Shown here in pieces: positions 6,335 to 23,990 of a DNA stretch of 32,000 bases. Both the position numbers and the translations under genes were made by a program. Source of the DNA: Hyphomonadaceae bacterium (GTDB lineage Bacteria > Pseudomonadota > Alphaproteobacteria > Caulobacterales > Aquidulcibacteraceae); assembly GCA_016791425.1 (NCBI GenBank), contig JAEUMQ010000001.1, positions 33,138 to 65,137 of the forward strand, in the 5' to 3' direction. Within the stretch, counting starts at the first letter, position 1. Each line of letters begins with the position of its first letter. The notes below the pieces were generated by a model, which ran no database searches, was not told the DNA's origin, and saw nothing but the letters and a program-made list of their open reading frames with translations.

Positions 6335-6368
6335 GGGCGCGCTTGCTTAGCCCCGCGCCACGCTTGGC

Positions 6369-8524: not shown

Positions 8525-8577
8525 GCGCGCTCCCTGCTGCGACTCATACGTAGGCGCTGCGGCCGGGTAAGGCCAGT

Positions 8578-8913: not shown

Positions 8914-8937
8914 GAGGTGGACCCTAATAGCACGGCG

Positions 8938-8954: not shown

Positions 8955-8982
8955 CCCGCATTCAAATTGGCCGATGTCCTGG

Positions 8983-9596: not shown

Positions 9597-9612
9597 CAAA
9601 GCCGCCGTTCGG

Positions 9613-10491: not shown

Positions 10492-10556
10492 ATGATCATG
10501 CCCGCGCCCAAAGTCATTTGGCCATCAATTAAGGGCCTGTCGTTCCGGTGCAAGCT

Positions 10557-13500
10557 TTACAGGAAGAGGGTGCGAGTCGTCGCCTTCCCCGGGAAGCCGT
10601 CGGCGCCGATCTGGGCGACGCGGACCTCGAGCGCGCCGGGCGGCGTCCCAAAATCCGCCGCCTGCGCCGCCGCCTCGTAGAGATAGGCGGCCGCCTCGGT
10701 CTCCACGCTCCGCACCGGCGTCCCCGCGTCCAGGATCTCCAAGAGGTAGCGCTCGGCCGGCGCCCCGATCGGCGGCTCGGCCGCGCCCCAGGAATCGCCG
10801 CCGATCCGGGCGCAGCGCACCCAGGAAAGCCGGACATCGCCGCTTGCGCCGCGCGCCGCGCGCAGGCGCACGGGCGCGAACGGGCGCGCGCCGACCGGCG
10901 CGATCCTCGCCGTGACGCTGGCCGCCTCCGCATCGCTGGCGAGCTTGCCGGGCGGCGGCGCGATGAAGGTGAGGTCCTCCCCGAACTCGTGCGCGCCGAC
11001 ATTCAGCCGCGCGAGCCGCGCGTCGATCTTCACGATCCGCGCGCCGACCGGCGCCGGCGCGCCCTGCTCGCTGTCGCCGAGCCCGCGCAGGAAGCCGGAA
11101 AGCTGCACCAGGCCATCGTCCGTGAGCGTCGCGTTGCGCGCCTGCAGAAGCTCCCAGCCAGCCTCCGTCTCCACCGCGAAGAGATTGGCGCCGTTGAGCA
11201 GCGCGCCCCTGGTCACGCTCTCGACCGATGAGCTCAGCCGTATACGGATGATGTTCCCGTCGTCCCAGCGCCCGACCGGCCCCGGATGAAGCGCCCATTC
11301 CAGCGTCCCGACGATGGCCGGCGCATTGGCTTGCCCGCGCACCGTCGCGTTGGCGTAGACCTCGTGCGGGCCGCGCCAGGGCTTCGCATAGACCCCCGCC
11401 AGCGGCCGCAGGTCGCTCTCCGCAAGCATCAGCGGCGGCAGGTCGAGCACGAGGAGATCGGGGGAAGGCGACATGGCCGGATGCGGCGCAGACGCGGGCG
11501 TCGGCCCTCCCGCCAGCGGCGCCGCGGCGCCGAGCGCGCGCCGCAGCGACAGGCGCCGGGTCTCCGCCTCCTCCACGCCCACGATCTCGTAGGCGCGCGC
11601 ATCGAGACTGACGAGATCGCCGGGCTCCAGCGCCACATTCTGCGGCGAAATGGCGATCTCCGCCGCCTCCACGCCCGCGCGCGCGAACGCCAGCGCCCGT
11701 TTCGCCAGCGCTTCGGCCTGCCCGTGATCGAGGACCAGCGGCGCCTCGAGGCTCGCGACGCCGCCTTCGGCCGCGTCCCGCCGCCGCGCGGACACCGTCG
11801 CGATCCGGTAGTCGAGCGACCCGTCCAGGAAGCGCACCCGCGCCTCGATCGGGATCTGCGCGGCGTCGTCGCGCACCGCATACGCCGAAGCCGCCGTTTC
11901 CTCCGTGAGCTGATCGATCGTCAGCGCAGCGACCGCGCCTTCGCCGCGATGGCGGAAGCCAAGCATCCCCTCCCGCTCGCCGGCCGAGAAATCATAGGCA
12001 AGCATCAAGGGCTCCAGCGCCTCGCGCGCGCTTGCCGGCGCATCCGCGACATAGCCGGCGACCGCGCCGCAGAGCCCCGCAACGTCGATGTCCGTCATGC
12101 TGGCGCGCTTGCAGAGATCGCCCACAACCGCCGGCAGTTCCGCCAGGCCCGCGCGCCCATTGAGCCAGTGCCCAAGACGCCAGGACGCGCCGTCCGACCA
12201 CACATCGTCGCGCCCCGGAAAGGCCGGATATGGCCGCGCGTCCCAGGCCCACACGAACATGCCGCTCGGATCGACCGGCCCTTCGCCGTCCCAATGGGTA
12301 AGATAGGCTTCGAGCGTGCGCCGCTGGATGAGATCATCGCGCGCGCCGGAGGAGAAAGGCGGCGCCGCACTCTCCGCGCTCTTCGGATCGAAGAAGAGGT
12401 TCGGCGCATTGGCGCCCTTGTCGATCGCCGGACAGCCGATCTCGGTGAACCAGATCGGCTTGGATTCGGGAAGCCAATCTGTCGGCGTTGCGCTCTCCAG
12501 CCCTCCGGGGCGGTCATAGTGCGCATTGCTCCACCACGACCGCACATCCTTCGCGCGGTACACCCAATGCTTCGCATAGGCGCCGTCCGTGATGCTCGTG
12601 CGCGTCTGCGCGACGCGGTCTGCGTCCGAAGCGTAATGCCAATCGAAGTTCTCGCCCGCCTCGATGCGGTCTTCCAGATAGTCGCGATCATAGATCCGCC
12701 GCGTGCTCGCCGCATCGAGATGCGTCGCCCCGTCGCGCCAATCGCTGAGCGGCGCATACCAATCTATGCCCACGACATCGATATGCTCGTCCGCCCACAA
12801 GGGATCGAGATGGAAGCAGACGTCGCCCGAGCCGTCCTGCGGCTGATGGCCAAAATACTCGCTCCAATCGGCTGCGTAAGTGAGCGTGCAGGCCTCGCCG
12901 ACGATGCCGCGCACCTCCGACGCCAAAGTCTTCAAACGTGCGACGGCGGGATAGTTCGTCGCGCTGTCGCGGATCGTGGTGAGCCCGCGCAACTCGGAGC
13001 CCATGATGAAGACATCGACGCCGCCCGCCGCCTCGGCGAGCTTCGCGTGGTGCAGGATGAAACGCCGGAAGGACCATTCGTCCGGCCCTGAATACGAGAC
13101 GCCGGTCCCGTGCGCCGCGAAATCTCCCGCCGCCGCGGTTCCGAAGAAGGCATCGACCTGCGCGGCCGCCGCCCCGGTCTTGTCGTCGTCCGCATCGCCA
13201 AGCGTGATGCGCCCGCGCCACGGATACGCCGCCTGCTCCGCCCCGCCATAAGGATCAGGCAGCCCATTGCCGACCGGCACATCCATCAGGATGAAGGGAT
13301 AAAGCCCGATCCGCGTGAAGCCGCGCGCCCGCAAGCTGGCGATCGCATCGATCACAGTCTTGTCCGCCGGCGTGCCGCCATAGGCCGGCGCGCCCTCGAT
13401 CTGGCTGACGACATAAGCGTCTTCGCGTTCGACGCCGTTCACGCTCCACGTGATCGGCCGGGTGACTTTCGTCCCGTTCTCCACGCCGGGCCTGATCTCG

Positions 13501-14372
13501 CAGGCGCCGCAGCGCAGGTCCGTGCCGAACCAGGCGACCACCAGAAGCACGCTGTCGCAACGGGGAAGGTCCGCCTGCAGATGATCGAGCGCGACCTCGA
13601 AGTTCGCCCGCTCCGGCTCGGCGTGGACGTTCTCCGCGGCGGCCTCGCCGGGCCGCAGTGCGCGCAGCACCGGCGCGGTCGCGTAGGCGAACTCGCCCGA
13701 ACCCGGGATGAGACACACGCCGCGAACCATGTCCTCCAGCCGCGGCGCGTCCGAGGGCGGCGGCCGCACGATCTCGAACGACAGCTGCGGAATGAGATTG
13801 CCGAACTGCTCGAGCGGCAGATCCTCGAACACGATATAGGCGAGCCCCCGATAGGCCGGCGCGCTCTCCCCCTCGACCGCCTCGATGATTGGGTCGGGCG
13901 CCTGATCCTCCGCGCCGCGATGGACCCGGTGCTCGACCCGCGATAGATCGAACGCCTCCCCGTTCGCCCACGCCCTCCCGATGCGCGCGATCTCGCCTTC
14001 GCAGAGCCCCACCGCAAACGAGATCGAGTACGAATAGGTCTTCGTCTTGCTGCGCGCGCCCCCGCCCTTGCCGCCTTGCGTCTCGACGCCGACATGCTCC
14101 TTGAACCTCGCCGCCCAGATCACCTGCCCCGCGATCCGCACGCGTCCATAGATCGCCGGGATCGAGGCGCCTTCGGTCGAGCTCTGGATGTGCAGGTCGG
14201 AGAGCCGCGGTCCTTCCGCGCGCCGCGTTGCGCCGAAGATCTGGGTATCCACGCGCTGCCCGATGGCCGCGCCCGCCGCGCCGAGCAGCGTCGCGCCGAT
14301 CGCCTGCAAAGCCGGCGGCAGGAGGCTCCTGCCGATCGCGGCGCCGACCGTGGAGAGGATCAGCTGGGCCAT
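10557..14372 (-). CDS. GTA g15 homolog: baseplate/host-specificity multidomain protein ('megatron'), 1271 aa
   Basis: The start is MAQLILSTVGAAIGRSLLPPALQAIGATLLGAAGAAIGQRVDTQIFG... (ATG 14372), the Gly/Ala-rich N-terminus typical of GTA g15. A central TIM-barrel-like glycoside-hydrolase-like segment (GFTRIGLYPFILMDV...VDVFIMGSELRGLT...IWFTEIGCPAIDKGANAPN) and a long C-terminal beta-rich region follow. The track's 1356-aa version adds an 85-aa Arg-rich extension overlapping g14 and is rejected. Confidence 0.88.
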   Translation of the reverse strand: MAQLILSTVGAAIGRSLLPPALQAIGATLLGAAGAAIGQRVDTQIFGATRRAEGPRLSDLHIQSSTEGASIPAIYGRVRIAGQVIWAARFKEHVGVETQGGKGGGARSKTKTYSYSISFAVGLCEGEIARIGRAWANGEAFDLSRVEHRVHRGAEDQAPDPIIEAVEGESAPAYRGLAYIVFEDLPLEQFGNLIPQLSFEIVRPPPSDAPRLEDMVRGVCLIPGSGEFAYATAPVLRALRPGEAAAENVHAEPERANFEVALDHLQADLPRCDSVLLVVAWFGTDLRCGACEIRPGVENGTKVTRPITWSVNGVEREDAYVVSQIEGAPAYGGTPADKTVIDAIASLRARGFTRIGLYPFILMDVPVGNGLPDPYGGAEQAAYPWRGRITLGDADDDKTGAAAAQVDAFFGTAAAGDFAAHGTGVSYSGPDEWSFRRFILHHAKLAEAAGGVDVFIMGSELRGLTTIRDSATNYPAVARLKTLASEVRGIVGEACTLTYAADWSEYFGHQPQDGSGDVCFHLDPLWADEHIDVVGIDWYAPLSDWRDGATHLDAASTRRIYDRDYLEDRIEAGENFDWHYASDADRVAQTRTSITDGAYAKHWVYRAKDVRSWWSNAHYDRPGGLESATPTDWLPESKPIWFTEIGCPAIDKGANAPNLFFDPKSAESAAPPFSSGARDDLIQRRTLEAYLTHWDGEGPVDPSGMFVWAWDARPYPAFPGRDDVWSDGASWRLGHWLNGRAGLAELPAVVGDLCKRASMTDIDVAGLCGAVAGYVADAPASAREALEPLMLAYDFSAGEREGMLGFRHRGEGAVAALTIDQLTEETAASAYAVRDDAAQIPIEARVRFLDGSLDYRIATVSARRRDAAEGGVASLEAPLVLDHGQAEALAKRALAFARAGVEAAEIAISPQNVALEPGDLVSLDARAYEIVGVEEAETRRLSLRRALGAAAPLAGGPTPASAPHPAMSPSPDLLVLDLPPLMLAESDLRPLAGVYAKPWRGPHEVYANATVRGQANAPAIVGTLEWALHPGPVGRWDDGNIIRIRLSSSVESVTRGALLNGANLFAVETEAGWELLQARNATLTDDGLVQLSGFLRGLGDSEQGAPAPVGARIVKIDARLARLNVGAHEFGEDLTFIAPPPGKLASDAEAASVTARIAPVGARPFAPVRLRAARGASGDVRLSWVRCARIGGDSWGAAEPPIGAPAERYLLEILDAGTPVRSVETEAAAYLYEAAAQAADFGTPPGALEVRVAQIGADGFPGKATTRTLFL

Positions 14373-14797
14373 GAAGCGGCTCCCGGAAACGAAAAGCTGG
14401 CCGCCGCGCGTGCGCGCCACCATGGCGCGAAGCGGCTCTGCAGCACCGCGCGCCCCCAATAGGCGTGGATGAGCTTCTCCTCGACGTCGAGGATCGCGGC
14501 GTGCTTGGCCGGAGACGTCGGATGCATCCGAAAGAGGATCACGTCGCCCGGCTGCGGCGCGTTGGTAAGGATCATGTGCCGGCGCGCCGCCTCGTAGAGC
14601 GTCTCTTCGCCGCGCGCTTCGGCCCAATCAGGCGTGTACGGAGGAACATCCTCCGGCTCCGCGCCGTAGAGCGCGCGCCACACGCCCCGGACAAGCCCGA
14701 GGCAATCGCACCCGGCCTGCTTGACGCTCGCCTGGTGACGATAAGGCGTGCCGAGCCAGGAACGCGCCTCCGCCAGGATCGCGCTTCTTGCGATCAT
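14360..14797 (-). CDS. GTA g14 homolog: NlpC/P60-family cell-wall peptidase
   Basis: ARSWLGTPYRHQASVKQAGCDCLGLVRGVW carries the catalytic Cys context, and ...GDVILFRM...AKHAAIL...LIHAY carries the His context. There is an ATGA overlap with the g13 stop. Confidence 0.88.
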   Translation of the reverse strand: MIARSAILAEARSWLGTPYRHQASVKQAGCDCLGLVRGVWRALYGAEPEDVPPYTPDWAEARGEETLYEAARRHMILTNAPQPGDVILFRMHPTSPAKHAAILDVEEKLIHAYWGRAVLQSRFAPWWRARAAASFSFPGAASWPS

Positions 14798-15663
14798 GCG
14801 CGCGATCCCCCGTCATTGTCGCCGCCGGGCTCCGGCCCCGCCTGCAGCGCGTCATTTCCCGGCATGTGCGGAAAGCCGCGGAAATTGACCGCGTTCGCGA
14901 ACTTCGCGCGGCACGTCTCGATGCGCTTGTCGCAACCTGCGTAGATGACGAACGCCGCGCCCGCCTCCAGCGTGCGCGCATCGACCAGTTCGATCGTTGC
15001 GCTCAATGCGCTTTGCCTGTGCACGCTGACTTCGCTCACGCCGCCGGCCGCCCAGACGATGCGCCCGTCGCTGAACCAGCCGTCCGCGAAGGCGCCGAGC
15101 CCGCTCGCGACGAATCCGTTTCCGGAGAGCACGTCGGCGATCTCGCCCTCGCCGCGAAACGCCGCCGTCTCCAGATCCATCCCGCAGCGCGCGTCGCCGA
15201 GGTCAGCGTCGCAGAACCGCGCGAAGACCCGCCCTACCGGCTTGTTGAGCTGCGCCTGCAGCCCGCGCAGCTCCGCTTCGAACGCGCGTGCGCCGCGCCG
15301 GACCTCGCCAAGCCGCCCCGCGAAGAGATGCGCCTTCAGGTCCGGATCGGTCCAATCGACGCGCCAGATATCCACGCGCGCGCCGTCCCAAAGTCCGTTC
15401 GCCAGATCGTCCGCACCGATCGCGTCGGAGGAAAGCGCGCCTGCCGCGCTCGCCGCATCGACGCCGAGCCCGAGCGATTTCTCGATCACGCCTGGCGCGA
15501 ACCCAGACGCCGGCTCGTAGTCGACGCCCTCGATCGAGAGCGTGCGATCGTGATCGGTGAAGCCGAACACCGCCTCGTCGCGCCGCGTCAGCTTCCAGAT
15601 CGTGGCGAGGCTCGTGACGCCCGTCGCGATGCGCGCGGCGAGCTCTTCGGGAATGTCCCGCAT
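14794..15663 (-). CDS. GTA g13 homolog: DUF2163/BR0599-type (TIGR02218-like) tail hub protein
   Basis: Signature-like segments are LATIWKLTRRDEAVFGFTDHDRTLSIEGVDYEPASGF and the C-terminal CDKRIETCRAKFANAVNFRGFPHMPG. The position between g12 and g14 fits. Confidence 0.85.
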   Translation of the reverse strand: MRDIPEELAARIATGVTSLATIWKLTRRDEAVFGFTDHDRTLSIEGVDYEPASGFAPGVIEKSLGLGVDAASAAGALSSDAIGADDLANGLWDGARVDIWRVDWTDPDLKAHLFAGRLGEVRRGARAFEAELRGLQAQLNKPVGRVFARFCDADLGDARCGMDLETAAFRGEGEIADVLSGNGFVASGLGAFADGWFSDGRIVWAAGGVSEVSVHRQSALSATIELVDARTLEAGAAFVIYAGCDKRIETCRAKFANAVNFRGFPHMPGNDALQAGPEPGGDNDGGSRA

Positions 15664-16277
15664 CAGGGCGTGATCTCGATCAGGGGCACGGAAAGCGGCC
15701 GCCCGGCGCCGAACGCGTCGAGGCTGATGTCGAGCCGGTCGGAATCGAACCGCACCGGCGTATCGAATAGAAAGCCGGCGGTGACGGTGGCGCCGGGCGC
15801 CGCGACATCGAGCGTCACCCGTCCAGTCGTGACGTCCACGATGAACGCCTCCGCGCTCAATTCATCGCCGTCCACCGCCACCAGCACCGTTCCGCTGACA
15901 GGCTTATGGATCGTCCGGGCGACCGCGCCGTACGTCTTCTGTAGCTGCACCACGGCGCCGCTTGTGCCGATCATCTCGCAGACTTGGTCCAGCGCGCTCG
16001 GCGTTTCCGAAGGCGCGCACGATTTCCAATCGAGAAAATCCCGAAACCGGAACCCGTGCAGTCGCCCGCGCCTGGCCTCGAAGAACGAGACGAGCGCGTG
16101 CAACTCATCGAGCGAACGCACCGCCCCGCCGATATCGAACCGGCGTCGCCCCTGCGCCCATGGCGAGTTGCGCGCCTCGCGCCCGCTGCCGAGCGTGACG
16201 ATCTCGGTGCGCCGCTCCGGCCCGCCATTGGCGCCAAGCGCCAGCGGCAGAGGAAGCAAAACCTCATGAAAGCTCAC
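15663..16277 (-). CDS. GTA g12 homolog: DUF2460/TIGR02217-like distal tail protein
   Basis: (V)SFHEVLLPLPLALGANGGPERRTEIVTLGSGREARNSPWAQGRRRFDIG is the characteristic N-terminus. The GTG start at 16277 overlaps the g11 stop (GTGA), and the g12 stop overlaps the g13 ATG by 1 nt. Confidence 0.85.
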   Translation of the reverse strand: MSFHEVLLPLPLALGANGGPERRTEIVTLGSGREARNSPWAQGRRRFDIGGAVRSLDELHALVSFFEARRGRLHGFRFRDFLDWKSCAPSETPSALDQVCEMIGTSGAVVQLQKTYGAVARTIHKPVSGTVLVAVDGDELSAEAFIVDVTTGRVTLDVAAPGATVTAGFLFDTPVRFDSDRLDISLDAFGAGRPLSVPLIEITP

Positions 16278-16801
16278 AGATTGCGCCTTCCGTAGGAAAC
16301 CGCGCGCGCGATCTGCGCAGCGATCTGGCCTTGATGCCGGACGAGGCTCTGCGCATCGGCGCCCGGCCCAAGATGGAAATGCACTTCCACCGGCGCCGCC
16401 ACGCCCGCACTCACATTGCCAGCCTGCGCCGGCGTGAAGATCTCAGGTCCGCGCTCTCCGACGAGATAGGCGCCGCCGGGAGTGACGGCCCCGCCCGCGG
16501 CGCGCGCGCCGAAGAACGGCAAGGCTAGTCCCGACGGCTTGCCGAACGCCTTGTCGAGCGCGACCTTCGCCAACTCTTCGAGGATCGTCTTGGCCAGTCG
16601 CTTCATCGATCCCTCGCCATCGGTCGCCGCGCGCCCGAGCGCGCCCGCGATCCGCTTCGCCGCGCGCTCGAACGTGCTCGAAATGTCATCGCCCGCCTTG
16701 GCGCACGGACCTTCGACGAACGCCTTCAGCGCGCTCTGCGCTTCGGTCAGCTCCCCGGTGAAAGCCGCAAGATCGAAAGGTTTGGAGAGATCGTCATTCA
16801 T
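16274..16801 (-). CDS. GTA g11 homolog: short tail tape-measure protein (175 aa)
   Basis: A helical N-terminal part is followed by the conserved C-terminal PFFGARAAGGAVTPGGAYLVGERGPEIFTPAQAGNV motif seen in GTA/phage tape-measure C-termini. It is positioned after the chaperone pair. Confidence 0.8.
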   Translation of the reverse strand: MNDDLSKPFDLAAFTGELTEAQSALKAFVEGPCAKAGDDISSTFERAAKRIAGALGRAATDGEGSMKRLAKTILEELAKVALDKAFGKPSGLALPFFGARAAGGAVTPGGAYLVGERGPEIFTPAQAGNVSAGVAAPVEVHFHLGPGADAQSLVRHQGQIAAQIARAVSYGRRNL

Positions 16802-16968
16802 GTTCGTGCATCGGGATAGGCCCGCATCAATGCTTCAAGGTCCGTGCGCGACAGCGGCGCCGGCGCCCGCGTCAGCGCGCGCCATTCCCTCACGCTGAGC
16901 CGCCAGAACGCTTCCGGCGCGAGCCCAAGCGAAAGCGCCAGCGCCAGCCACGCCCGCCACGGGATCAT
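16798..16968 (-). CDS. GTA g10.1 homolog: small tail-assembly protein, 56 aa (absent from the supplied ORF track because it is under 60 aa)
   Basis: My own translation is MIPWRAWLALALSLGLAPEAFWRLSVREWRALTRAPAPLSRTDLEALMRAYPDART*. The ATG is at 16968, 10 nt after the g10 stop, and its TGA overlaps the g11 ATG (ATGA at 16801-16798). It has high GC3 and the expected position between g10 and g11. Confidence 0.75.
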   Translation of the reverse strand: MIPWRAWLALALSLGLAPEAFWRLSVREWRALTRAPAPLSRTDLEALMRAYPDART

Positions 16969-16978
16969 CTTCGCCCAA

Positions 16979-17269
16979 TCATTCCTCGAACGCCACGCGG
17001 AACGCCGCCGCGACCGCGCTCGCCGCTTCGCGCGGATCGATCCTCGCCGCCGCGAGCTCCGCTCCCGGCCTGCCCGTCAGCGCCGCCAGGATCGTGATGA
17101 GATCCGACGCGGAGAGATGCGCCAGCCGCTCCCCGAGCGCGGCGAAGCCGTCAGTGTCGAACGCCGCCTCAAGCTCCGCGAGCGCGCCGAGCGTCAGGCA
17201 AAGCCGGACCGGCGCGCCGTCGATCGCGAGCACGACCTCGCCGCGCGCGCGATTGCGAAGCGCGCTCAT
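16979..17269 (-). CDS. GTA g10 homolog: gene-transfer-agent family protein / tail assembly chaperone
   Basis: MSALRNRARGEVVLAIDGAPVRLCLTLGALAELEAAF...LSASDLITILAALTG is typical of the small GTA g10 family. There is an ATGA overlap with the g9 stop. Confidence 0.82.
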   Translation of the reverse strand: MSALRNRARGEVVLAIDGAPVRLCLTLGALAELEAAFDTDGFAALGERLAHLSASDLITILAALTGRPGAELAAARIDPREAASAVAAAFRVAFEE

Positions 17270-17685
17270 GCGGCGGTGAAGCTGATCGCGCCCGCCGACG
17301 CGAGCGTCACCGCGAACGCCGCCTCGCCGTCATGATCGCCGGTATAGTCCAGCGCCTCGATCAGGAACGCGCCCGTCAGCGTCCCGAAGCTCGGGATGAT
17401 GAGCTGCCAATTGCCCGCCGTCTGCGCGAAGAAGGCCGCGCGCATCGCCGCGTCCGAGGCAGCGTCCTTGAACACGCCCGCGCCGGTCACGGTCGCGGAC
17501 TTGACGCCGGCGCCGGCGATGAGCTCGCGCCAGGCGTCCGTGCTCTCCGCGCTTGTCGCGTCCACCGAGCGTGCGTTGAGCGAGATGGTCTTGGCGCGCA
17601 AGCCCGCGATCGTGGTGAACGTCTCGCTCGGCGAGCCGCCGTCGCCGATCTTCAAGAGAACGTCGCGTCCCTTCTGTCCAGCCAT
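17266..17685 (-). CDS. GTA g9 homolog: major tail protein (TP901-1-like family)
   Basis: The product is MAGQKGRDVLLKIGDGGSPSETFTTIAGLRAKTISLNARSVDATSAES...WRELIAGAGVKSATVTGAGVFKD... A GAGGAAG Shine-Dalgarno sequence lies 6 nt upstream of the ATG at 17685. Confidence 0.88.
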   Translation of the reverse strand: MAGQKGRDVLLKIGDGGSPSETFTTIAGLRAKTISLNARSVDATSAESTDAWRELIAGAGVKSATVTGAGVFKDAASDAAMRAAFFAQTAGNWQLIIPSFGTLTGAFLIEALDYTGDHDGEAAFAVTLASAGAISFTAA

Positions 17686-17697
17686 GGTGTAGCTTCC

Positions 17698-18105
17698 TCA
17701 GTTCGGTTCTGTAATCGCGCGGAGGCGCAGGATGCCGTGCGTCGTCTGTCCGTCGCCGGCGCGGAACGCATCGGCGAACACCGCGTGCAGCAGCACCAGC
17801 CGATGCCCGCTCAAGCTGAGCGCCTGGTCGTGCAACGCGCCCCGCAGCGCACCCAGCGCCTCGAGCGCTTCCGCCCGCCCGCCATGCCGCGACCACACGT
17901 GCAATGTCACGACATGCTCCAGGGCCGCCTGCGAGGCCGAATCCGCTGGCCGGCTCTGGAAGCCGCCGAACGTGGCGTACGGAAACACCGCATCCGGCGG
18001 ATGATCGTCGTGCATGCGAGCGGGATCCCCGAGAACCGCCTGCACGCCCGCATCGGCCGTGGCCGCCGCGCGGATCGCCGCGCCCAGCGCCCGTTCCGCG
18101 CTCAT
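17698..18105 (-). CDS. GTA g8 homolog: DUF3168-type tail completion protein
   Basis: From ATG 18105 (ATGA overlap with the g7 stop) the product is MSAERALGAAIRAAATADAGVQAVLGDPARMHDDHPPDAVFPYATFGGFQSRPADSAS..., 135 aa. The longer track ORF (to 18201) would overlap g7 by 100 nt. Confidence 0.8.
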   Translation of the reverse strand: MSAERALGAAIRAAATADAGVQAVLGDPARMHDDHPPDAVFPYATFGGFQSRPADSASQAALEHVVTLHVWSRHGGRAEALEALGALRGALHDQALSLSGHRLVLLHAVFADAFRAGDGQTTHGILRLRAITEPN

Positions 18106-18413
18106 AGGCGCTCCTCCACGCAGGCAAGCTCGAGGAGCGCATCCGTCCCCGCGATCACGGCATCGATCCGAAACACGCGCTCGTTCCAAAGCACGCGCCA
18201 ACCCGCGCGCACATCGCTCGGCGCCCGGATCGTCACACGATACGAAGCGTTCGAGAGCGCGCCGTCATATCCAGCGCCCGCGGAGCCCGCACCGGGGCTT
18301 ATCTCCGCCCACACCTCGCCTGCATCGCTCCAGGAGATCTCCGCGCCGCCGAGATCGTCGCTCACGCGCTCCGGCGATTGCAGCGTGATGCGCGCCCGCA
18401 ATTTCTCGATCAT
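18102..18413 (-). CDS. GTA g7 homolog: head-tail adaptor / head closure protein
   Basis: RITLQSPERVSDDLGGAEISWSDAGEVWAEISP...YRVTIRAPSDVRAGWRVLWNERVFRIDAV is the classic phage head-tail adaptor pattern. There is an ATGA overlap with the g6 stop. Confidence 0.88.
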   Translation of the reverse strand: MIEKLRARITLQSPERVSDDLGGAEISWSDAGEVWAEISPGAGSAGAGYDGALSNASYRVTIRAPSDVRAGWRVLWNERVFRIDAVIAGTDALLELACVEERL

Positions 18414-18970
18414 AGCCGCGCCGGCGCGAACGGACGCATCAGCGCCCGCGCCGTCTCCGGCAACGGCCCATCGCCGATGCGCGTGTCATAGAGCGCCGCC
18501 ACGACATGCAGCACCGCCAGCCGCAGCGCGACCGGCAGATCTTCTGCGGCCTCCGCCAGGCCCGCATCGTAATCGATCTCGACCGCGCCGGCGCTTCGCA
18601 GGATCGCCGGCAAGCCGCTCTCGAACACGAGCCGCGGCCGATCGCGTGCGCCATCGAGCCGATAGCGCTCCGGATCGATCACGCTCTCCGTGCCGTTGCG
18701 CGCGACGAGGCGCACCGCGACGACGTTCGTCGCCGGACCGATCGAGAGCAGCGCGCCGCCGACCGCGTCGCGCCGCCAGATGTCGAGGCTCTCGCGCACG
18801 CGCCGCGAGATGAGCGCGCGCCCGCACCCGGTCTCGACCGCTTCGCGCGCCGCCACGATCAAGAGACTGATCAGATCATCCTCCACCGCGTGGTCCACGC
18901 GCAGGAAGAGCTTCGCCTCCGCCAGCGAGACCGGCTCGCTGGCGGGAGGCGTGAGAATACGAACGGACAT
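18410..18970 (-). CDS. GTA g6 homolog: head-tail connector (gp6-like)
   Basis: ILTPPASEPVSLAEAKLFLRVDHAVEDDLISLLIVAAREAVETGCGRALI is the gp6-like connector N-terminus. An AAGGAG Shine-Dalgarno sequence lies 4 nt upstream of the ATG at 18970. Confidence 0.85.
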   Translation of the reverse strand: MSVRILTPPASEPVSLAEAKLFLRVDHAVEDDLISLLIVAAREAVETGCGRALISRRVRESLDIWRRDAVGGALLSIGPATNVVAVRLVARNGTESVIDPERYRLDGARDRPRLVFESGLPAILRSAGAVEIDYDAGLAEAAEDLPVALRLAVLHVVAALYDTRIGDGPLPETARALMRPFAPARL

Positions 18971-18981
18971 GATGCTCCTTT

Positions 18982-19119
18982 CCTCCCCCGTTCACGGGGG
19001 AGGTGTCGCTCGCAGCGCGAGCGACGGAGGGGGCGCAGCAGCGCAAGCGGAACGAACCGTTCACCCGCACGCGCCCCCTCAGTCAGCTTCGCTGACAGCT
19101 CCCCCGCAAGCGGAGGAGC
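18982..19119. repeat. REP-like composite stem-loop element (family 1, copy A) filling the g5/g6 spacer
   Basis: There are five hairpins. H1 is cctccccc/gggggagg (18982-19003, 6-nt loop). H2 is gtcgctcgc/gcgagcgac (19005-19025, 3-nt loop). H3 is the long-range pair gagggggcgc (19027-19036) with gcgccccctc (19071-19080). H4 is gtcagc/gctgac (19082-19096). H5 is the imperfect gctcccccgc/gcggaggagc (19098-19119). The core 18994-19037 matches 28083-28126 at 43 of 44 positions. Confidence 0.8.
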
Positions 19120-19147
19120 AAACCGCCGAGTTCTGCGGCGTTGCGTT

Positions 19148-20350
19148 CTAGCTCGCGGCGAACTTCATCAGCTTCACGGCGTCGAAATGCTGCACGCCGC
19201 CGCCGACGCGCTTGGTCACATAGAAGAGCACGTAGGGCTTCATCGAGTAGGGGTCGCGCAGCACCCGCACGCCTGCCCGATCGACGATGAGGTAGAAGCG
19301 CGCGAAATCGCCGAACGCGATCGAATACGAGTTCGCCGCCACGTCCGGCATCTCCTCCACTTCCGTGATCGGATAGCCGAGGATCGCCGATCCAGCGCCG
19401 CCATCGGTCGGCTGCCAGATATACGCGTCGTTCGCGTCCTTGAGCTTGCGCACCTTCGCCAACGTCTTCCGGTTCATCACGAACCGCGCGTTCTGCCGGA
19501 ATTGCGGCTTCGGCGTGTAGACGAGGTCGATGATCTTATCGACCGGATCGCTCGACGCGAAATCGCCCGACGCGCCGGAAAGCACGAACCCGACTTTCTC
19601 CCACGCATGGCTGCCTTCCGCGACCTTGTCGTAATCAAGGAAGCCGGCCGGCTGGTTCTCGCCCGTACCGGAGACGAACGCCGTGCGCTCCTGCGCGGCG
19701 AACGCCTCCTCCACTTCGCTCGCGATCCATTCCTCGAGATTGACGAACGTGTCGTCGAGCAACGTCTGGGTGGCGGCGAGATTGGCGTAGAGCTCGGCGG
19801 TGGGGAATTCCAGCAGCGACAGCGTCGGCGCCGTCGTCTCGTCGCGGTCGGCGGTCTCCGCCACCCAGCCCGAGCCGGCGGCGGTGATCGACACCGGCTT
19901 CTTGAACACGTTGGCGCCCGTGGTGCGCACCGTCGCGATCGTCCGCATCGGCGACACCGCCTTCAGGCGGTTCTCGATCAGCCGGTCGAGATCCGGCGGC
20001 GCGAAATAGCCGTCCGTGTCGCCCGTCACCGACAGCGCCTTCGCCTCGATCCGCGCGAGCGCGCTTTCATCGCCGCGCCGAAGATAAGCGCCCCAGGCCG
20101 ACTTGCGCTCCGACATCTGCGGATCGGCCGCCAGCGCCGGGCGCCGCCCATTCAAGGCGATGCGCTCGATCATCGCCTTCTGCTCGGCGAGCGCGCGGTC
20201 GATCCGATCGACCTTCTCTTCCAGCAGCACGTCGCCGCGCTTGCCTTCGATCGCCGCGAGCCGCTGGTCGTTCGTCTCCTTGAAGCTCTCGAACGTGCGC
20301 ATGAGCGCTTCGGCCTCCGCTGAAGGCGCGGCCTTGGTTTCCTTTCTCAC
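19148..20350 (-). CDS. GTA g5 homolog: HK97-fold major capsid protein
   Basis: ...AEAEALMRTFESFKETNDQRLAAIE... is a scaffold-like delta region, followed by a typical HK97 capsid body (...LSLLEFPTAELYANLAATQTLLDD..., ...YIWQPT..., ...GYPITEVEEMPD...). The preferred start is the GTG at 20350, preceded by AAAGGAAG. The alternative TTG at 20365 overlaps the g4 stop. Confidence 0.9.
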   Translation of the reverse strand: MRKETKAAPSAEAEALMRTFESFKETNDQRLAAIEGKRGDVLLEEKVDRIDRALAEQKAMIERIALNGRRPALAADPQMSERKSAWGAYLRRGDESALARIEAKALSVTGDTDGYFAPPDLDRLIENRLKAVSPMRTIATVRTTGANVFKKPVSITAAGSGWVAETADRDETTAPTLSLLEFPTAELYANLAATQTLLDDTFVNLEEWIASEVEEAFAAQERTAFVSGTGENQPAGFLDYDKVAEGSHAWEKVGFVLSGASGDFASSDPVDKIIDLVYTPKPQFRQNARFVMNRKTLAKVRKLKDANDAYIWQPTDGGAGSAILGYPITEVEEMPDVAANSYSIAFGDFARFYLIVDRAGVRVLRDPYSMKPYVLFYVTKRVGGGVQHFDAVKLMKFAAS

Positions 20351-20361
20351 GTTGCTTCCTT

Positions 20362-20787
20362 TCAAGCTGCGCGGGCGCTCGCCCGCGTGGTGTTGAGCCG
20401 CGCCAGCGGCTGCATCGGAAGCGCCACGATCGACACTTCCAGAAGCTCAAGTTCGATGAGCAGGCGCCCCCCGCCCTTGATGGGCTCGGACGCATGCGTG
20501 ATGAAGCCGATCGACAGCCCGTCCACGCCGCGCTCGAGCATGCGCCGCGCGCGCCGCGCCGCCGGCGCGTCCGCTTCGATCAGCCCACGGAGGAAAAGCC
20601 CGCGACCGTCCTCGCGCGCCTCGCGCCAGCGTCCGGCGAGCAGCCGCTGCTCATGATGCAGCAGCAGCGGCAGCGGCGCCCGCCGCCGCGCCAGGCTCTC
20701 GCGAAACGCGCCCGCGCGCACGACGTCGCCCACGAGGTCCGCCGCGCCGAACAGCGCCGCGTACCCCTCCACCGCAATCTCCTGCAT
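20362..20787 (-). CDS. GTA g4 homolog: HK97-family prohead protease (141 aa)
   Basis: From ATG 20787 the product is MQEIAVEGYAALFGAADLVGDVVRAGAFRESL...PLLLHHEQ (His context)...VDGLSIGF (Ser context)...ELELLEVSIVALPMQP. The longer track ORF to 21006 overlaps g3.5 and is rejected. Confidence 0.85.
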   Translation of the reverse strand: MQEIAVEGYAALFGAADLVGDVVRAGAFRESLARRRAPLPLLLHHEQRLLAGRWREAREDGRGLFLRGLIEADAPAARRARRMLERGVDGLSIGFITHASEPIKGGGRLLIELELLEVSIVALPMQPLARLNTTRASARAA

Positions 20788-20791
20788 AGGC

Positions 20792-21016
20792 TCAGTCGCG
20801 CTCGAGCCGACGCTCGATCCGCGCGAGGGACGCGCGCGCCTGTCCGAGCTGCTCTTCCAGGCGCACCAGTCGCTCGGCCATCTCGTCCGTCTTCGCGATG
20901 CGCGCCTCGACCGCGTCGAGCCGCGCCGCGGCCTTGCCGGTCCAGATGAATCCGCCCGCCGCCTGCAGCACGACCGCGACCATGAGCGCGAGCGTGATCC
21001 GCGCATCGATCTTCAT
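20792..21016 (-). CDS. GTA g3.5 homolog: small membrane/coiled-coil protein, 74 aa
   Basis: The product is MKIDARITLALMVAVVLQAAGGFIWTGKAAARLDAVEARIAKTDEMAERLVRLEEQLGQARASLARIERRLERD. The ATG at 21016 forms an ATGA overlap with the portal stop. It has one TM helix plus a coiled coil and sits between portal and protease, as in RcGTA. Confidence 0.75.
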   Translation of the reverse strand: MKIDARITLALMVAVVLQAAGGFIWTGKAAARLDAVEARIAKTDEMAERLVRLEEQLGQARASLARIERRLERD

Positions 21017-22167
21017 GGCGTCTCCACGCCCGCCAGGCGCCGCTTCTCCGCGTCCGTGAGGAAGTCCGCGCCCGACAAACGCGACCACAATTCCCCGTTC
21101 TGCGCCTCCCGCTCGCTCGCCAGCGCCGGCACGCTCTCCAGATCCAGGCTCACGCGCGCCGTCTCTCCGCCCCAGCGATCGCCGAGCCACGTCTCGATCG
21201 CCCGCGCCGCCTTCATCGCGAGCGGCAGCGCGGTCTGGCGCCAGAACGCGAGATTGGCTTCGCGATAATTCGAATACGTGTTGTCGCCCGGTATCCCCAG
21301 CAGCATCGGCGGCGCCCCGAACGCCAGCGCGATCTCCCGCGCCGCCGCGTGCCTGGCCTCGATGAAATCCATGTCGGCCGGCGTCAGGCTCATCGGTTTC
21401 CAATCCAGCCCTCCCTCGAGCAGCAGCGGACGCCCTGCGTTCGCGGCGCCCATGTGCGCTTCCTCCAGCTCCGCCTTGAGGCGCTGGAATTGCTCTTCGC
21501 TCAAACGGTCCGCGCCGCCGACGCCGCTGAACACGAGCGCGCCCGAAGGCCGCGCGGCGTTGTCGATCAGCGCCTTGTTCCAGGCCCCGCCCGCATTATG
21601 GATGTCGATCGCGTAGGCGGCCGCCTCCATCGGCGAGAGCCCGAGCCAATCGTCGGTCGGATGGAAGAGCTTGAGGTGCAGGATCGGCGCATGCTCGCTG
21701 ATCGGATCGCGATCGAAGCGCCGCACGACGCTGCCGGCGCGATATTCCCATCCGATCGGCCAGCCATTGCCGCCCGCGATCACCCGCATCCGGTCCGGCC
21801 GCAACACGAAGATCTCGCGCGGCGGTTCATCCTCGAACGCCGACGCCTCGAGGAACGCATTGCCCGACACCTGCAGATGCCCGAAGAACGCCTCCAGCAA
21901 TTCCACGCCCGTCTGCTCCGGGTTCGGGCGCCTCAGAAGCTCCGCTAGCGGATGATCTTCCGGCGTCACCCTGAGCGGCGCGCTCGCCGCCGCTTCCGCG
22001 ATCAGCCGCACGCACCGATACGCCACCGCATTGCGCGCATATCCCTCGCGCGCGAACGCGGTCGGATCGCGGCACGGCCACACCGGCGCGCCGACGCCGA
22101 AAGCCAGGAACTTCCGTTCGACGCGAACCTTCCGGTCCGCGCCGCGCAGCCAATCGAACAGTCTCAT
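21013..22167 (-). CDS. GTA g3 homolog: HK97-family portal protein
   Basis: The 384-aa product has portal-family segments (NAVAYRCVRLIAEAAASAPL..., GNAFLE..., LKLFHPTDDWLGLSPMEAAAYAIDIHNAGGAWNKALIDNAARPSGAL..., MLLGIPGDNTYSNYREANLAFWRQT). It follows TerL. Confidence 0.9.
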   Translation of the reverse strand: MRLFDWLRGADRKVRVERKFLAFGVGAPVWPCRDPTAFAREGYARNAVAYRCVRLIAEAAASAPLRVTPEDHPLAELLRRPNPEQTGVELLEAFFGHLQVSGNAFLEASAFEDEPPREIFVLRPDRMRVIAGGNGWPIGWEYRAGSVVRRFDRDPISEHAPILHLKLFHPTDDWLGLSPMEAAAYAIDIHNAGGAWNKALIDNAARPSGALVFSGVGGADRLSEEQFQRLKAELEEAHMGAANAGRPLLLEGGLDWKPMSLTPADMDFIEARHAAAREIALAFGAPPMLLGIPGDNTYSNYREANLAFWRQTALPLAMKAARAIETWLGDRWGGETARVSLDLESVPALASEREAQNGELWSRLSGADFLTDAEKRRLAGVETP

Positions 22168-22185
22168 GTCGCTTTCCAGAGGGGC

Positions 22186-23499
22186 TCAGAGCGGCCGCAG
22201 GCGCGGCCGCACGTCCTTCACCAGCAATTCCGTGATCGCCCAGACGAGCGCGTCGAGCCGGTCGGGACTGCCGATGAAGCCGGGCGCCCCGAACGAACAC
22301 ATCTCGTCTTCAAGCTCGGCGAACACGCTCGCGTGGCTGACCCGCCCGCGAATGTAGAGCGCCGAAACCGGCAGCGCGCGCTCGTGCTTGCTGACCCGCG
22401 CGTTCACCAGCCGCACGGCCGTGTCGCCGGCGACCAGCTTCAACATTGCGCGCACCAGCTCGCCGCCATTGTTCGCTTCCGCCACGATCGCCTCGGCATT
22501 CAGCGAACGCGCCAGCCTGGCCGCCGCGCTCGCCCATTCCTCCGGGCGCGCGCCTTGCAGGCTGGCGTCGGCCAGAACGATCGCGCGCCGATCCGCTTCC
22601 CCGCCATAGGCGCCCGCCGCGACGATGCCGCACGCGTTCGACGCCTTGCCGATGCTCACCGGCGGATCCACCGCCACCAGGATCCGATCGAGACCGGGCA
22701 GCGAAGGCGCCCGCACGGATTCGATCAGCTCGCGCGTCCAGAGCGCGCCGGCCGGATCCTCGATCAGCGCCCCGGCGAGCTCCTGCCGGTCGTGCACCGA
22801 GCCGGTCCAGCGCGCCCGCAGCGCGGCCAGAAAATCCGGCGCCAGATTGTGCGCATTGGCCCATGTCGAGGCCAGCGTGCGCACGGTGTCGGACGCGCCG
22901 AGCAATCGCTTCAGCGCCGCCAGCGGCCGCGGCGTGGTGGTCAGCGCAAGCTTCGGCGCTTCCCCGAGCCGCAGGCCGTGCAGCAGCGCGCCAAGCGTCG
23001 CCTCCGGCTGCGCCCAGTAGCAGAACTCGTCGCCCCACGCGGCGTCGAATTGCGGTCCGCGCAGGCTTTCTGGATCCTCCGCCGAGAAGAAGTGCGCCTC
23101 CGCGCCGTTCTCCCACACCACGCGCCGCCTGGTCGGCTCGATCGCCGGGCGCTCGCCTGCGCCGGCGCGCAATCCCGCCGGCCCTTCGATCATCACTTCG
23201 CGCGCATCGTTGAACGTCGGCGCAACGAGCGCCACGCGGCCGGCCTGGCCGGCGCGCACGATCCGCTTCACCCATGCCGCGCCGGCTTCGGTCTTGCCCG
23301 CCCCGCGTCCCCCGAGGAACACCCATGTGCGCCACGGTCCCGGCGGCGGCAGCTGCGCATCGTGCGCCCAGAATTCCCAGTCACGGTTGAGGAGCCTGAG
23401 CTCCGCTCCCGTCAGGCTCTCCAAGAAGGTCTTCAGCTCTGTCGGCGCCGATGAAGCGAGCGATGCGACGCTCCAGGTTCGCGCGAAGCTCTTCGTCAT
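22186..23499 (-). CDS. GTA g2 homolog: terminase large subunit (TerL)
   Basis: The N-terminus is ...LESLTGAELRLLNRDWEFWAHDAQLPPPGPWRTWVFLGGRGAGKTEAGAAWV (Walker A GGRGAGKT), and the C-terminal nuclease half includes ILVAVDPPVS... and ...IVAEANNGGELV... The ATG at 23499 is the only canonical start upstream of the conserved N-terminal region. It overlaps g1 out of frame by 119 nt. Confidence 0.9.
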   Translation of the reverse strand: MTKSFARTWSVASLASSAPTELKTFLESLTGAELRLLNRDWEFWAHDAQLPPPGPWRTWVFLGGRGAGKTEAGAAWVKRIVRAGQAGRVALVAPTFNDAREVMIEGPAGLRAGAGERPAIEPTRRRVVWENGAEAHFFSAEDPESLRGPQFDAAWGDEFCYWAQPEATLGALLHGLRLGEAPKLALTTTPRPLAALKRLLGASDTVRTLASTWANAHNLAPDFLAALRARWTGSVHDRQELAGALIEDPAGALWTRELIESVRAPSLPGLDRILVAVDPPVSIGKASNACGIVAAGAYGGEADRRAIVLADASLQGARPEEWASAAARLARSLNAEAIVAEANNGGELVRAMLKLVAGDTAVRLVNARVSKHERALPVSALYIRGRVSHASVFAELEDEMCSFGAPGFIGSPDRLDALVWAITELLVKDVRPRLRPL

Positions 23500-23728
23500 T
23501 TTCTTCCGGCCGCTGTCCGAGCGCGAGCGCGTTGAGCTCCTCTACGTCCTTGAGCGCCTTGCAGAGCGCCGAGACCGCCTTGCCCGCGCGCTCCGCCTGC
23601 ACCGCATCGCCGGCTGCGAGCGCCCCTTGCGCATCTTGCAGCGCCCGGCTCAGCCGCGCCGACCAGATTTCCAGCGCCGGGGGTTCCTCAAGGCCGGAAC
23701 CGCCGCCTGCGCCCAATTGTTTGACCAT
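23381..23728 (-). CDS. GTA g1 homolog: small-terminase-like protein (115 aa)
   Basis: This is the first gene of the cluster. It is small and helical (ARLSRALQDAQGALAAGDAVQAERAGKAVSALCKALKDVEELNALALGQRPEENDEELRANLERRIARF) with no recognisable HTH. An AGGA lies 7 nt upstream of the ATG at 23728. Confidence 0.7.
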   Translation of the reverse strand: MVKQLGAGGGSGLEEPPALEIWSARLSRALQDAQGALAAGDAVQAERAGKAVSALCKALKDVEELNALALGQRPEENDEELRANLERRIARFIGADRAEDLLGEPDGSGAQAPQP

Positions 23729-23773
23729 GACCTATCCTAGGCACGGGTCCGGGTCGGTCGGATAAGTTTCTGC

Positions 23774-23797
23774 GGACAAGGCCTCAAACCCTTGTCC
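23774..23797. promoter_or_regulatory. 8-bp perfect inverted repeat ggacaagg-N8-ccttgtcc upstream of GTA g1
   Basis: It lies 46-69 nt upstream of the g1 ATG, in the 262-bp spacer shared divergently with the PBP gene. It could be a protein operator or a 5'-UTR hairpin. No CtrA-type TTAA-N7-TTAA box is visible in this spacer. Confidence 0.25.
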
Positions 23798-23990
23798 CGC
23801 CTGGCTCGGCGCCCTCCGAAGGCCGGGGATAGCGGGGATTTCGCCCTCCCTTTCCGGCCCGAATAAAGCCACAGGGCATAGCCACGAGGCACTCGTACGA
23901 GGCCGCTGATTCAACGGAGAGCCTGGCTTGGTCGAGCCGGAGGGCGCAGGGGAGCAGAAAACCCAGCCGCTTCAAGCGGTTCGCGACCGC

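Follow-up and report, generated by a model that had tools for sequence, protein, structure and literature searches.

A probably domesticated RcGTA-type gene transfer agent cluster with a conserved g1 gene and a candidate promoter in a Hyphomonadaceae genome

Background

Clusters resembling RcGTA, the gene transfer agent (GTA) of Rhodobacter capsulatus, have been documented in hundreds of alphaproteobacterial genomes, including those of the Caulobacterales (PMC10883770, PMC9662315). The general pattern in this class is that of a vertically inherited, selected and domesticated element (PMC10883770, PMC9662315), with recurrent loss and common pseudogenization (PMC10883770). RcGTA itself (rcc01682-rcc01698; structures 6TBA and 6TE8) consists of 17 genes on a single strand and is regulated through GafA, CtrA and quorum sensing. 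Its gp1 is the GTA small terminase (TerS), an all-helical protein of 92-121 amino acids (aa) that has no DNA-binding domain and is encoded directly upstream of the large terminase, TerL (PMC6854486). Rhodogtaviriformidae, the viriform family recognized by the International Committee on Taxonomy of Viruses, currently comprises Rhodobacterales GTAs only (PMC9662315). The present study concerns an RcGTA-type cluster in a 32-kb stretch of DNA, referred to below as the window (32,000 nucleotides; the 732,676-bp contig JAEUMQ010000001.1 of assembly GCA_016791425.1, positions 33,138-65,137), from a Hyphomonadaceae bacterium of the order Caulobacterales. The analysis covered the window and the homologous loci of relatives.

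Within the Caulobacterales, GTA production was shown in Caulobacter crescentus (PMC9632790), whose cluster, CcGTA (CCNA_02880-02861; PMC9632790, PMC11150451), is transcribed from a mapped promoter, PgtaT. This promoter contains a GafY element, ACTATGGGGA, at -123 and an element for IHF, AAATCAGCGGCTTG, at about -70; its core is made up of a -35 sequence (AATCAT), a GafZ element (CTGGCGC) and a -10 sequence (TATCTTT), transcription starts at the A in CATGG, and the ATG of gtaT lies at +251 (PMC11150451). Release of the Caulobacter GTA proceeds via LypABC rather than through a holin and endolysin (PMC13236601).

True phages are related to these elements as well. Siphophages of the Rhodobacter RcKai and RcOceanus types and Dinoroseobacter phage R4C (8GTC) possess homologues of TerL, capsid, distal tail protein, hub, peptidase and megatron, the last being ~45% identical over 95% of its length. 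Unlike the cluster described here, which is 13.2 kb long, holds structural genes only and is fixed between host genes with which it co-diverges, these siphophages are replicating entities of 37-42 kb with replication, lysis and regulatory modules. Here we report that the window very probably carries an intact, domesticated operon encoding the head and tail structural proteins of an RcGTA-type (alphaproteobacterial type I) GTA, vertically inherited and under purifying selection. From sequence alone, we infer its expression, the identity of its regulators, random packaging and particle production.

Organization of the cluster and identity of its genes

The cluster and its genes are as follows (E-values without further label refer to protein families).

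GTA head-tail cluster: 10557-23728, minus strand, 13.2 kb with 17 co-linear open reading frames (ORFs) in RcGTA order
g1: 23381-23728, minus strand, small three-helix protein of 115 aa, putative GTA small terminase
g2: 22186-23499, minus strand, large terminase TerL of 437 aa (Terminase_6N and Terminase_6C)
g3: 21013-22167, minus strand, portal protein (Phage_portal, 5e-83; RcGTA portal Rcc01684, 6TBA, E 2e-116)
g3.5: 20792-21016, minus strand, 74 aa, an N-terminal hydrophobic helix and then a coiled-coil-like segment
g4: 20362-20787, minus strand, HK97-type prohead protease of 141 aa (TIGR01543, 83.7 bits, cutoff 59; Peptidase_S78)
g5: 19148-20365, minus strand, HK97-fold major capsid protein (TIGR01554, 2e-108; RcGTA Rcc01687, E 1e-83)
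g6: 18410-18970, minus strand, head-tail adaptor (TIGR02215, 1e-38; RcGTA Rcc01688, E 1e-9)
g7: 18102-18413, minus strand, head completion protein (stopper; Phage_HCP, 5e-20; RcGTA Rcc01689, E 4e-7)
g8: 17698-18105, minus strand, tail terminator (tail completion; Tail_completion_gp17, 1e-32)
g9: 17266-17685, minus strand, tail tube of the TP901-1 type (Phage_tail_2, 6e-43; RcGTA Rcc01691, E 4e-38)
g10: 16979-17269, minus strand, tail assembly chaperone of the GTA-gp10 family (PF11836, 5e-12)
g10.1: 16798-16968, minus strand, second tail assembly chaperone, rcc01693 family (PF09550, 2e-14)
g11: 16274-16801, minus strand, short tape measure protein of 175 aa (Tape_meas_lam_C, 1.5e-5; phrog_30701, 2e-12)
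g12: 15663-16277, minus strand, distal tail protein (TIGR02217, 225 bits, cutoff 137; RcGTA Rcc01695, E 2e-53)
g13: 14794-15663, minus strand, baseplate hub (TIGR02218, 283 bits, cutoff 80; RcGTA hub 6TBA_7A, E 6e-62)
g14: 14360-14797, minus strand, NlpC/P60 cell-wall peptidase (TIGR02219, 198 bits, cutoff 82; Cys motif GCDCLGLV)
g15: 10557-14372, minus strand, baseplate multidomain protein, the "megatron", of 1271 aa (NF048004, 1610 bits, cutoff 800)

Genes were assigned with Pfam, NCBIfam and PHROGs, and the concatenation of all 17 proteins was searched against the PDB sequences with phmmer. Phage or GTA families of Pfam or NCBIfam were matched by 15 of the 17 ORFs, the exceptions being g1 and g3.5, which show no detectable similarity to known families. 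Five GTA-specific families (GTA_megatron, GTA_TIM, Rcc01695, rcc01693 and GTA-gp10) were among the matches. Eight RcGTA particle proteins with solved structures were matched directly, several of them over their full length: portal, capsid, adaptor, stopper, tube, distal tail protein, hub and the megatron, whose match to Rcc01698 spans residues 1-1298 (E 6e-287) and which contains GTA_TIM, Phage-tail_3 and Rcc01698_C domains. As judged by this direct sequence comparison, the cluster is of the RcGTA type: its 17 genes correspond to those of RcGTA, are arranged identically and lie on one strand. It is related to the Rhodogtaviriformidae without being a formal member, its host belonging to the Caulobacterales rather than the Rhodobacterales. 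For g10.1, a match to TIGR02216 (2e-10) fell under that model's cutoff, and g3.5 (third-position G+C content (GC3) 0.91; 55-68% identity among relatives) gave only weak PHROG matches, with E ~0.003, and is a positional equivalent only of RcGTA g3.5. The tape measure protein is shorter than that of RcGTA and far under the cutoff of the RcGTA model, and a shorter tail than that of RcGTA would be expected from its 175 aa.

All 17 ORFs are uninterrupted and display the GC3-rich codon signature typical of real genes. The catalytic motifs can be read in the translations: TerL has Walker A (GGRGAGKT) and Walker B (WGDE) motifs, and the protease has its LLLHH and GLSIGF contexts. Coding sequence makes up 98.3% of the cluster, according to the junction table. 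Seven junctions are 4-nt ATGA/GTGA overlaps (g3/g3.5, g6/g7, g7/g8, g9/g10, g10.1/g11, g11/g12 and g13/g14), g12/g13 overlap by 1 nt, and g14/g15 overlap by 13 nt. The TTGA at the g4/g5 junction is an eighth 4-nt overlap, provided that the capsid gene starts at TTG 20365, a start backed by relatives that align from residue 1. The models of the NCBI Prokaryotic Genome Annotation Pipeline (PGAP; locus tags JNJ73_, proteins MBL8548376-92) are identical for 14 of the 15 gene models compared, including TerL (437 aa) and the protease. A longer protease ORF from 21006 was rejected, since its composition, the point at which the profile match begins and the reading frame of g3.5 all spoke against it, and the 141-aa ORF from 20787 was kept. 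The G+C content of the window is 0.69 and uniform along its length; the cluster (0.696) is close to its two flanks (0.688 and 0.690), as is its GC3 (0.84 vs 0.87 in the flanks).

A sequence-only reading of this DNA had described 17 genes in canonical order on one strand, key motifs intact in TerL, the protease and the NlpC/P60 protein, and a composition like that of the host; all of this holds at 10557-23728 on the minus strand, and the comparison with RcGTA that it proposed gave the 15 family matches and eight particle-protein matches above. Its list of seven 4-nt overlaps, one of 1 nt and one of 13 nt agrees with the junction table throughout, but omits a 119-nt out-of-frame overlap between g1 and TerL.

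CcGTA shares the bacterial order and the RcGTA-like structural genes with this cluster and differs from it in several details. Here, the gap between TerL and portal is 18 nt, there are no gtaQ or gtaS genes, no 150-bp terGTA repeats were found with Tandem Repeats Finder, and no antisense resistance gene lies inside the cluster.

Synteny and selection among relatives

Relatives were collected by a capsid-based scan with one genome per species, which yielded 38 loci. Nearly all were Caulobacterales metagenome-assembled genomes (MAGs) of Terricaulis, Vitreimonas, Hyphomonadaceae and Caulobacteraceae, with capsid identities of 69-77%. In all 23 genomes in which both flanks were covered, T. silvestris among them, tblastn placed the cluster between the PBP1A/DUF2336/PrfC genes and the DnaJ-like gene, and in 18 of these 23, g2 through g15 each gave one uninterrupted match. 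Protein identity to the relatives was 45-82% for GTA genes and 58-73% for flank genes. Pairwise ratios of nonsynonymous to synonymous substitution (dN/dS) were calculated by the Nei-Gojobori method (NG86) and expressed as medians against 11 relatives. They ranged from 0.17 to 0.45 for GTA genes (portal 0.17, tube 0.20, capsid 0.24, megatron 0.30, g1 0.45) and were 0.22 for PrfC, 0.27 for the DnaJ-like protein, 0.38 for PBP1A and 0.45 for DUF2336, these values being rough with dS at ~1 and near saturation. Values of dN were similar between GTA and flank genes. Thus, as far as sequence comparison goes, the GTA genes evolve like their housekeeping neighbors, which indicates vertical inheritance, purifying selection and domestication.

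Several orthologous clusters have decayed. Most of TerL was lost independently in three loci, L009 (3285-4062), L016 (7675-8193) and L019 (7703-8216); only the last ~40 codons remain in L009 and L019, and L016 yielded no TerL match. L009 still has g1, which the other two loci have lost in part or entirely. The promoter blocks described below are kept at least in L009 and L019, and all other GTA genes covered by the contigs are apparently intact. Locus L034 has lost g8-g13. In Terricaulis silvestris (CP047045.1; L039, 10001-17407), the only close relative in culture, the flanks, g1, TerL, portal and protease are present, and a truncated capsid gene (255 aa) runs into a truncated megatron (1115 aa), g6-g14 being deleted. 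The clusters of T. silvestris, L034 and L019 share their flanks and promoter blocks with the window copy, which, unlike these orthologues that lost most of TerL or genes within g6-g14, is intact. Frameshifts in L011 and L022 may be MAG errors.

In three more distant Hyphomonadaceae (L029, L030 and L031; in L031 at 5700-17300), homologues of portal, g3.5, protease, capsid and g6 are interspersed with genes for a GmrSD-like protein, a short-chain dehydrogenase, an OPT transporter and an Na/H exchanger. No TerL or tail genes were detected in these three loci, where the cluster is fragmented or scattered.

A conserved coding gene upstream of TerL

Searches of Pfam, NCBIfam and PHROGs returned nothing for the first gene of the cluster, which has a GC3 of 0.71. 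Its reading frame, followed from position ~+25 of the predicted mRNA until 100 nt beyond the TerL ATG, was free of stops in all 26 genomes carrying the upstream core block; over the same span, the other two frames contained stops in 23 and 26 of the 26 genomes. The alignment conserves the motif AER.AKAVSALV.AERDVAE, then an acidic run, and finally LRAELRRRL. A profile search retrieved 148 homologues, mostly 95-97 aa long (family range 95-122 aa); every one of them belongs to Terricaulis, Vitreimonas or Hyphomonadaceae and is labelled a hypothetical protein. g1 is therefore a real, clade-specific coding gene, in a clade in which g1 is usually "not detectable".

AlphaFold2, run on the g1 alignment, predicted helices at residues 18-38, 42-71 and 78-101, with a per-residue confidence (pLDDT) of ~90 for the first two, and no helix-turn-helix. 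A helical protein of this kind, predicted to be without a DNA-binding domain and encoded just upstream of TerL, resembles RcGTA gp1 and fits its published description (PMC6854486). On this predicted structure, g1 is a putative TerS by position and architecture rather than by homology; the label depends on those two features since profile, family and Foldseek searches gave no TerS match.

Overlap with TerL is itself a conserved trait. The two genes overlap by 119 nt in different frames, and the PGAP models show the same arrangement (g1 with 115 aa). Its length is exactly 119 nt not only in the window but also in T. silvestris and 19 of 25 relatives, whereas the other relatives have overlaps of 116-128 nt. 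The TerL ATG, at 23499, is conserved in position among relatives.

The region upstream of g1

Conservation across more than 25 related genomes marks out three non-coding blocks upstream of g1.

Putative GTA promoter/regulatory region: 23729-23927, minus strand, divergent intergenic region of 200 nt from the PBP1A gene to g1
Block 1: 23873-23857, minus strand, TGTGGCTTTATTCGGGC in the window; clade consensus GGTATGGCCGAATTCTGGCCAG
Block 2: 23849-23827, minus strand, remnant of a GGA...TATCC inverted repeat; clade form GGATAG-N9-GTATCC
Inverted repeat: 23797-23774, minus strand, GGACAAGG-N8-CCTTGTCC with perfect 8-bp arms, window-specific
Block 3, core promoter: 23770-23729, minus strand, ATCCGACCG in the -35 region and TAGGAT at 23739-23734

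For comparison, primer sequences given in the supplement of PMC11150451 were used to reconstruct C. crescentus PgtaT. The clade consensus of block 3 is AAAATCAATCCGACCG-N3-CGG-N8-TAGAGT-N6-CA(C/T)GGTCGAGAA, and PgtaT, aligned to this core without gaps and anchored at the start, matches it at 21 of 38 positions with identical spacing between -35, -10 and start. Shuffles of the PgtaT alignment gave a mean of 9.6 matches, and one in 5000 reached 21. The aligned stretch comprises a CAATC in the -35 region, an 18-nt GC-rich spacer, a TA...T at -10 and a CA(T/C)GG at the start. Farther upstream, block 1 resembles the region of the GafY element (TATGG...ATT...GGCC...AACGC); its TATGG...GGCC element, similar to the GafY-binding element, is at -135, vs -121 in C. 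crescentus. Relative to the predicted transcription start, block 1 is at -135 in most loci and block 2 is fixed at -106. The block-1 pattern TRTGGCNNWWTTCKGGC occurs as a single copy in the window and as a single copy at the equivalent place in 28 of the 38 loci. By its alignment with PgtaT, the upstream region is a candidate GTA promoter.

By analogy with PgtaT, transcription in the window is predicted to start at the A of the g1 ATG, at 23728. From this predicted start to the TerL ATG is 229 nt, compared with 251 nt in CcGTA. Since the ATG of g1 coincides with the predicted start, the g1 mRNA may be leaderless in the window and in six relatives that also have an in-frame ATG there; most others have ACG at this point, and their g1 starts at ~+37. 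Unlike the situation in C. crescentus, in which the corresponding stretch is treated as a 5' untranslated region (5'UTR), a conserved g1 ORF fills this stretch here. Fragments of the C. crescentus transcript sequence show an ATG at +1 and, in the frame equivalent to g1, an acidic run, DEAADDDEAS, that immediately precedes the gtaT ATG and resembles the acidic run of g1 in this clade. More speculatively, a g1 that has degenerated may be what is called the "5'UTR" in C. crescentus.

Other signals were sought with negative results. No recognizable site for the IHF consensus was found in the window, a CtrA box (TTAA-N7-TTAA, at most one mismatch) had no match in the 32 kb, and a scan for the sigma-70 consensus had no match. 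A terminator scan gave six candidates vs 7.1 expected, i.e., chance level. The inverted repeat at 23797-23774 spans ~-69 to -46, the site of the IHF-binding element of PgtaT in C. crescentus; as a general operator it was rejected, not being conserved in relatives. The core nonamer ATCCGACCG occurs twice more on the minus strand in g3, at 22067-22059 and 21662-21654. Three copies compare with 0.8 expected, and 3 of 100 shuffles reached three, and the extra copies within the portal gene are probably due to chance.

Alternative interpretations

Because the cluster has housekeeping flanks, occupies a fixed slot and is accompanied by no prophage modules, we read it as a domesticated GTA rather than a prophage. 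A PBP1A (PbpC-like) gene begins on the opposite strand 200 nt upstream of g1, and a co-directional DnaJ/CbpA-like gene begins 65 nt past the g15 stop. The outer flanks contain a VapBC pair, two two-component systems, CcmE/CcmF for cytochrome c maturation and DegP, and further flank genes encode DUF2336 (SpbR-like), PrfC, a Sel1-repeat protein and DUF1491. None of the features of a temperate prophage (integrase, att site, repressor or antirepressor, replication and lysis genes) was found in the 32 kb, in which ARAGORN detected no tRNA and Rfam gave no match; a search for att-like direct repeats across the cluster borders returned only low-identity, GC-rich chance matches. It is extremely unlikely, then, that the cluster is the structural module of a true phage, a prophage or a phage satellite, with the remaining modules located elsewhere or immediately beyond the window. 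Phage homologues can be cited for every gene, RcKai-type Rhodobacter phages and vB_DshS-R4C (8GTC) have RcGTA-like tail genes including the megatron, and TerL is up to 48% identical to phage-labelled records; conserved housekeeping genes nevertheless adjoin both ends, and the cluster keeps one slot between host genes in more than 20 species, with a divergence equal to that of host genes. The best TerL match in the phage database, at 48% identity, also compares with 54-62% in syntenic chromosomal loci. Two records filed as "Bacteriophage sp." turned up in the searches: MW462191.1 (103 kb), with a TerL at 45.5% and a full-length megatron homologue at 40% identity, and MW091529.1 (18 kb), with a TerL homologue at 48% identity. 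Both may be bacterial GTA regions filed as phages.

A recently silenced relic, with intact ORFs but no expression or no transducing particles, for instance after loss of regulators or accessory loci, is improbable and nonetheless the rival to be taken most seriously; such a lineage would be a GTA "cheater" heading toward the deletions seen in relatives. Decayed clusters in 5 of 23 relatives, promoter blocks in the window that diverge from the clade consensus, a window-specific inverted repeat at the position of the C. crescentus IHF site and the commonness of GTA pseudogenization (PMC10883770) all speak for it. Against it stand the 17 of 17 intact ORFs with their catalytic motifs, dN/dS values as low as those of the housekeeping neighbors, and a promoter variant common to the relatives L011 and L013, by which sharing it is, on sequence grounds, a lineage variant rather than random decay. 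Very unlikely, too, is a particle domesticated for another use, either DNA-free or a tailocin-like killing or signalling particle. The three relatives that retain everything but most of TerL, with g1 also affected in two of them and promoter blocks kept in at least two, could mean that particles are valuable without DNA packaging, or the loci may be mere recent losses; in the window, intact TerL, portal and TerS-like g1 under purifying selection point to DNA packaging.

Several observations count against an intact, domesticated and working GTA and were weighed accordingly. The source is a MAG, and the evidence is confined to its sequence and those of its relatives. The 32-kb window does not extend to the loci for gafYZ/gafA, rogA, cdxB, lypABC, head spikes and tail fibres. 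For g1 and g3.5, homology to the RcGTA genes of the same name cannot be demonstrated, and they are positional equivalents only; a Foldseek search of the g1 model against the PDB gave no significant match, and g11 scored only 28.7 bits against NF058675 (RcGTA_tape, 220 positions; cutoff 220). The promoter blocks of the window have diverged further than those of most relatives, and dN/dS was estimated near saturation. Since ~41-kb Rhodobacter phages carry full-length megatron homologues with ~45% identity, no single gene is diagnostic of a GTA; phage R4C (8GTC) was likewise matched by window proteins in the PDB-sequence search. Finally, with 5 of 23 relatives decayed, GTA function is dispensable and the window copy could be silent. 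This frequency fits the known recurrent loss (PMC10883770), yet keeps the silent relic alive as a rival.

With these points considered, an intact, domesticated GTA cluster remains the preferred reading. The sequence-only reading had reached the same view, a domesticated element rather than a decaying prophage, and is backed by the flanks, the absence of att sites and tRNAs in the window, the fixed slot and the flank-like dN/dS. Its statements that no integrase, att-like repeat, repressor, replication or lysis module is present hold within the 32 kb, as does that of housekeeping flanks (PBP1A, DnaJ-like, cytochrome c maturation, DegP, PrfC). It had regarded dN/dS near 1 and disrupted orthologues in close relatives as evidence that would tell against its call: dN/dS of GTA genes (0.17-0.45) equals that of the flanks (0.22-0.45) and is not near 1, and disrupted orthologues do occur, in the minority of 5 of 23 lineages, without overturning the call. 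Two further claims fared less well. The genome, taken for a Rhizobiales-type one, is a Hyphomonadaceae MAG of the Caulobacterales with relatives in Terricaulis and Vitreimonas; and the case for a good experimental candidate is weakened, as the MAG is uncultured, production is already known in the Caulobacterales, and the T. silvestris copy has decayed. The expectation that an endolysin and holin are encoded elsewhere may not apply, because Caulobacter GTA release uses LypABC.

Possible mode of action and significance

By analogy with the described systems, a host activator of the GafY/GafZ type would act in a subpopulation of cells, turning on the single promoter that precedes g1. One polycistronic mRNA would be made and translated via tightly coupled, overlapping genes. 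The products of g3-g5 would build an HK97-type prohead, into which the TerS-like g1 protein (without a DNA-binding domain) and TerL might load headfuls of any host DNA at hand, and g6-g15 would supply the connector, a short non-contractile tail and the megatron baseplate. Lysis would depend on functions encoded elsewhere, and the particles would carry DNA to relatives.

Another RcGTA-like cluster in itself changes little, since hundreds of alphaproteobacterial genomes are already known to have one. What the locus offers is a clean, intact reference copy for the Terricaulis/Vitreimonas clade, where public annotation carries no GTA label, together with a conserved upstream cis-region that can be aligned with the only mapped Caulobacterales GTA promoter. 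Moreover, intact and independently decayed orthologues, by loss of most of TerL or of tail genes, constitute a natural series for studies of GTA loss. A broader proposal, which we regard as tentative and on balance somewhat doubtful, is that this clade has retained the control region and packaging module of the ancestral GTA of the Caulobacterales, with a GafY/GafZ promoter, a TerS g1, the 119-nt coupling and a C. crescentus "5'UTR" that is the remnant of a lost g1. If so, a promoter orthologous to PgtaT would drive an mRNA starting at or just before g1, the 119-nt overlap would couple TerS and TerL synthesis, and TRTGGCNNWWTTCKGGC could be used to trace the GafY regulon (accessory GTA loci) computationally in uncultured Caulobacterales.

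Spacers and neighboring genes

Inside the cluster, the spacer between g5 and g6 is a structured one.

g5-g6 spacer: 18971-19147, minus strand, 177 nt, six stacked hairpins (minimum free energy -111 kcal/mol, z = -6.9)

A TTTG follows the first hairpin, and the last hairpin sequesters the ribosome-binding site of g6. The hairpin array may be an mRNA stabilizer or a partial terminator. A conserved terminator was rejected, for the g5-g6 gap is 0 nt in 12 relatives and is filled in the others by unrelated palindromes of 30-154 nt. Because relatives are either gapless here or carry unrelated palindromes, the junction is a variable hot spot for inserts resembling repetitive extragenic palindromes or miniature inverted-repeat transposable elements (REP/MITE-like).

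At the other end of the cluster, the 65-nt stretch that separates the g15 stop from the DnaJ/CbpA-like gene (10492-10556) contains no terminator-like hairpin, and the adjacency of the two genes is conserved in every relative, including T. silvestris. For these reasons, transcription of the GTA operon may continue into the chaperone gene. Beyond it, on the minus strand, a VapB antitoxin gene (9584-9366; PF09957) and a VapC PIN toxin gene (~9369-8983; NF047959) are bordered by the DnaJ-like gene on one side and a conserved small ORF on the other. As tblastn finds VapC in 0 of the 38 related loci, the VapBC pair is a window-specific insertion beside the GTA cluster. On the opposite flank, between prfC and the gene for the Sel1-repeat protein, intergenic DNA (29871-29909) contains a 12-nt unit, GCCCAGAGACCA, in 3.2 copies with 96% identity.

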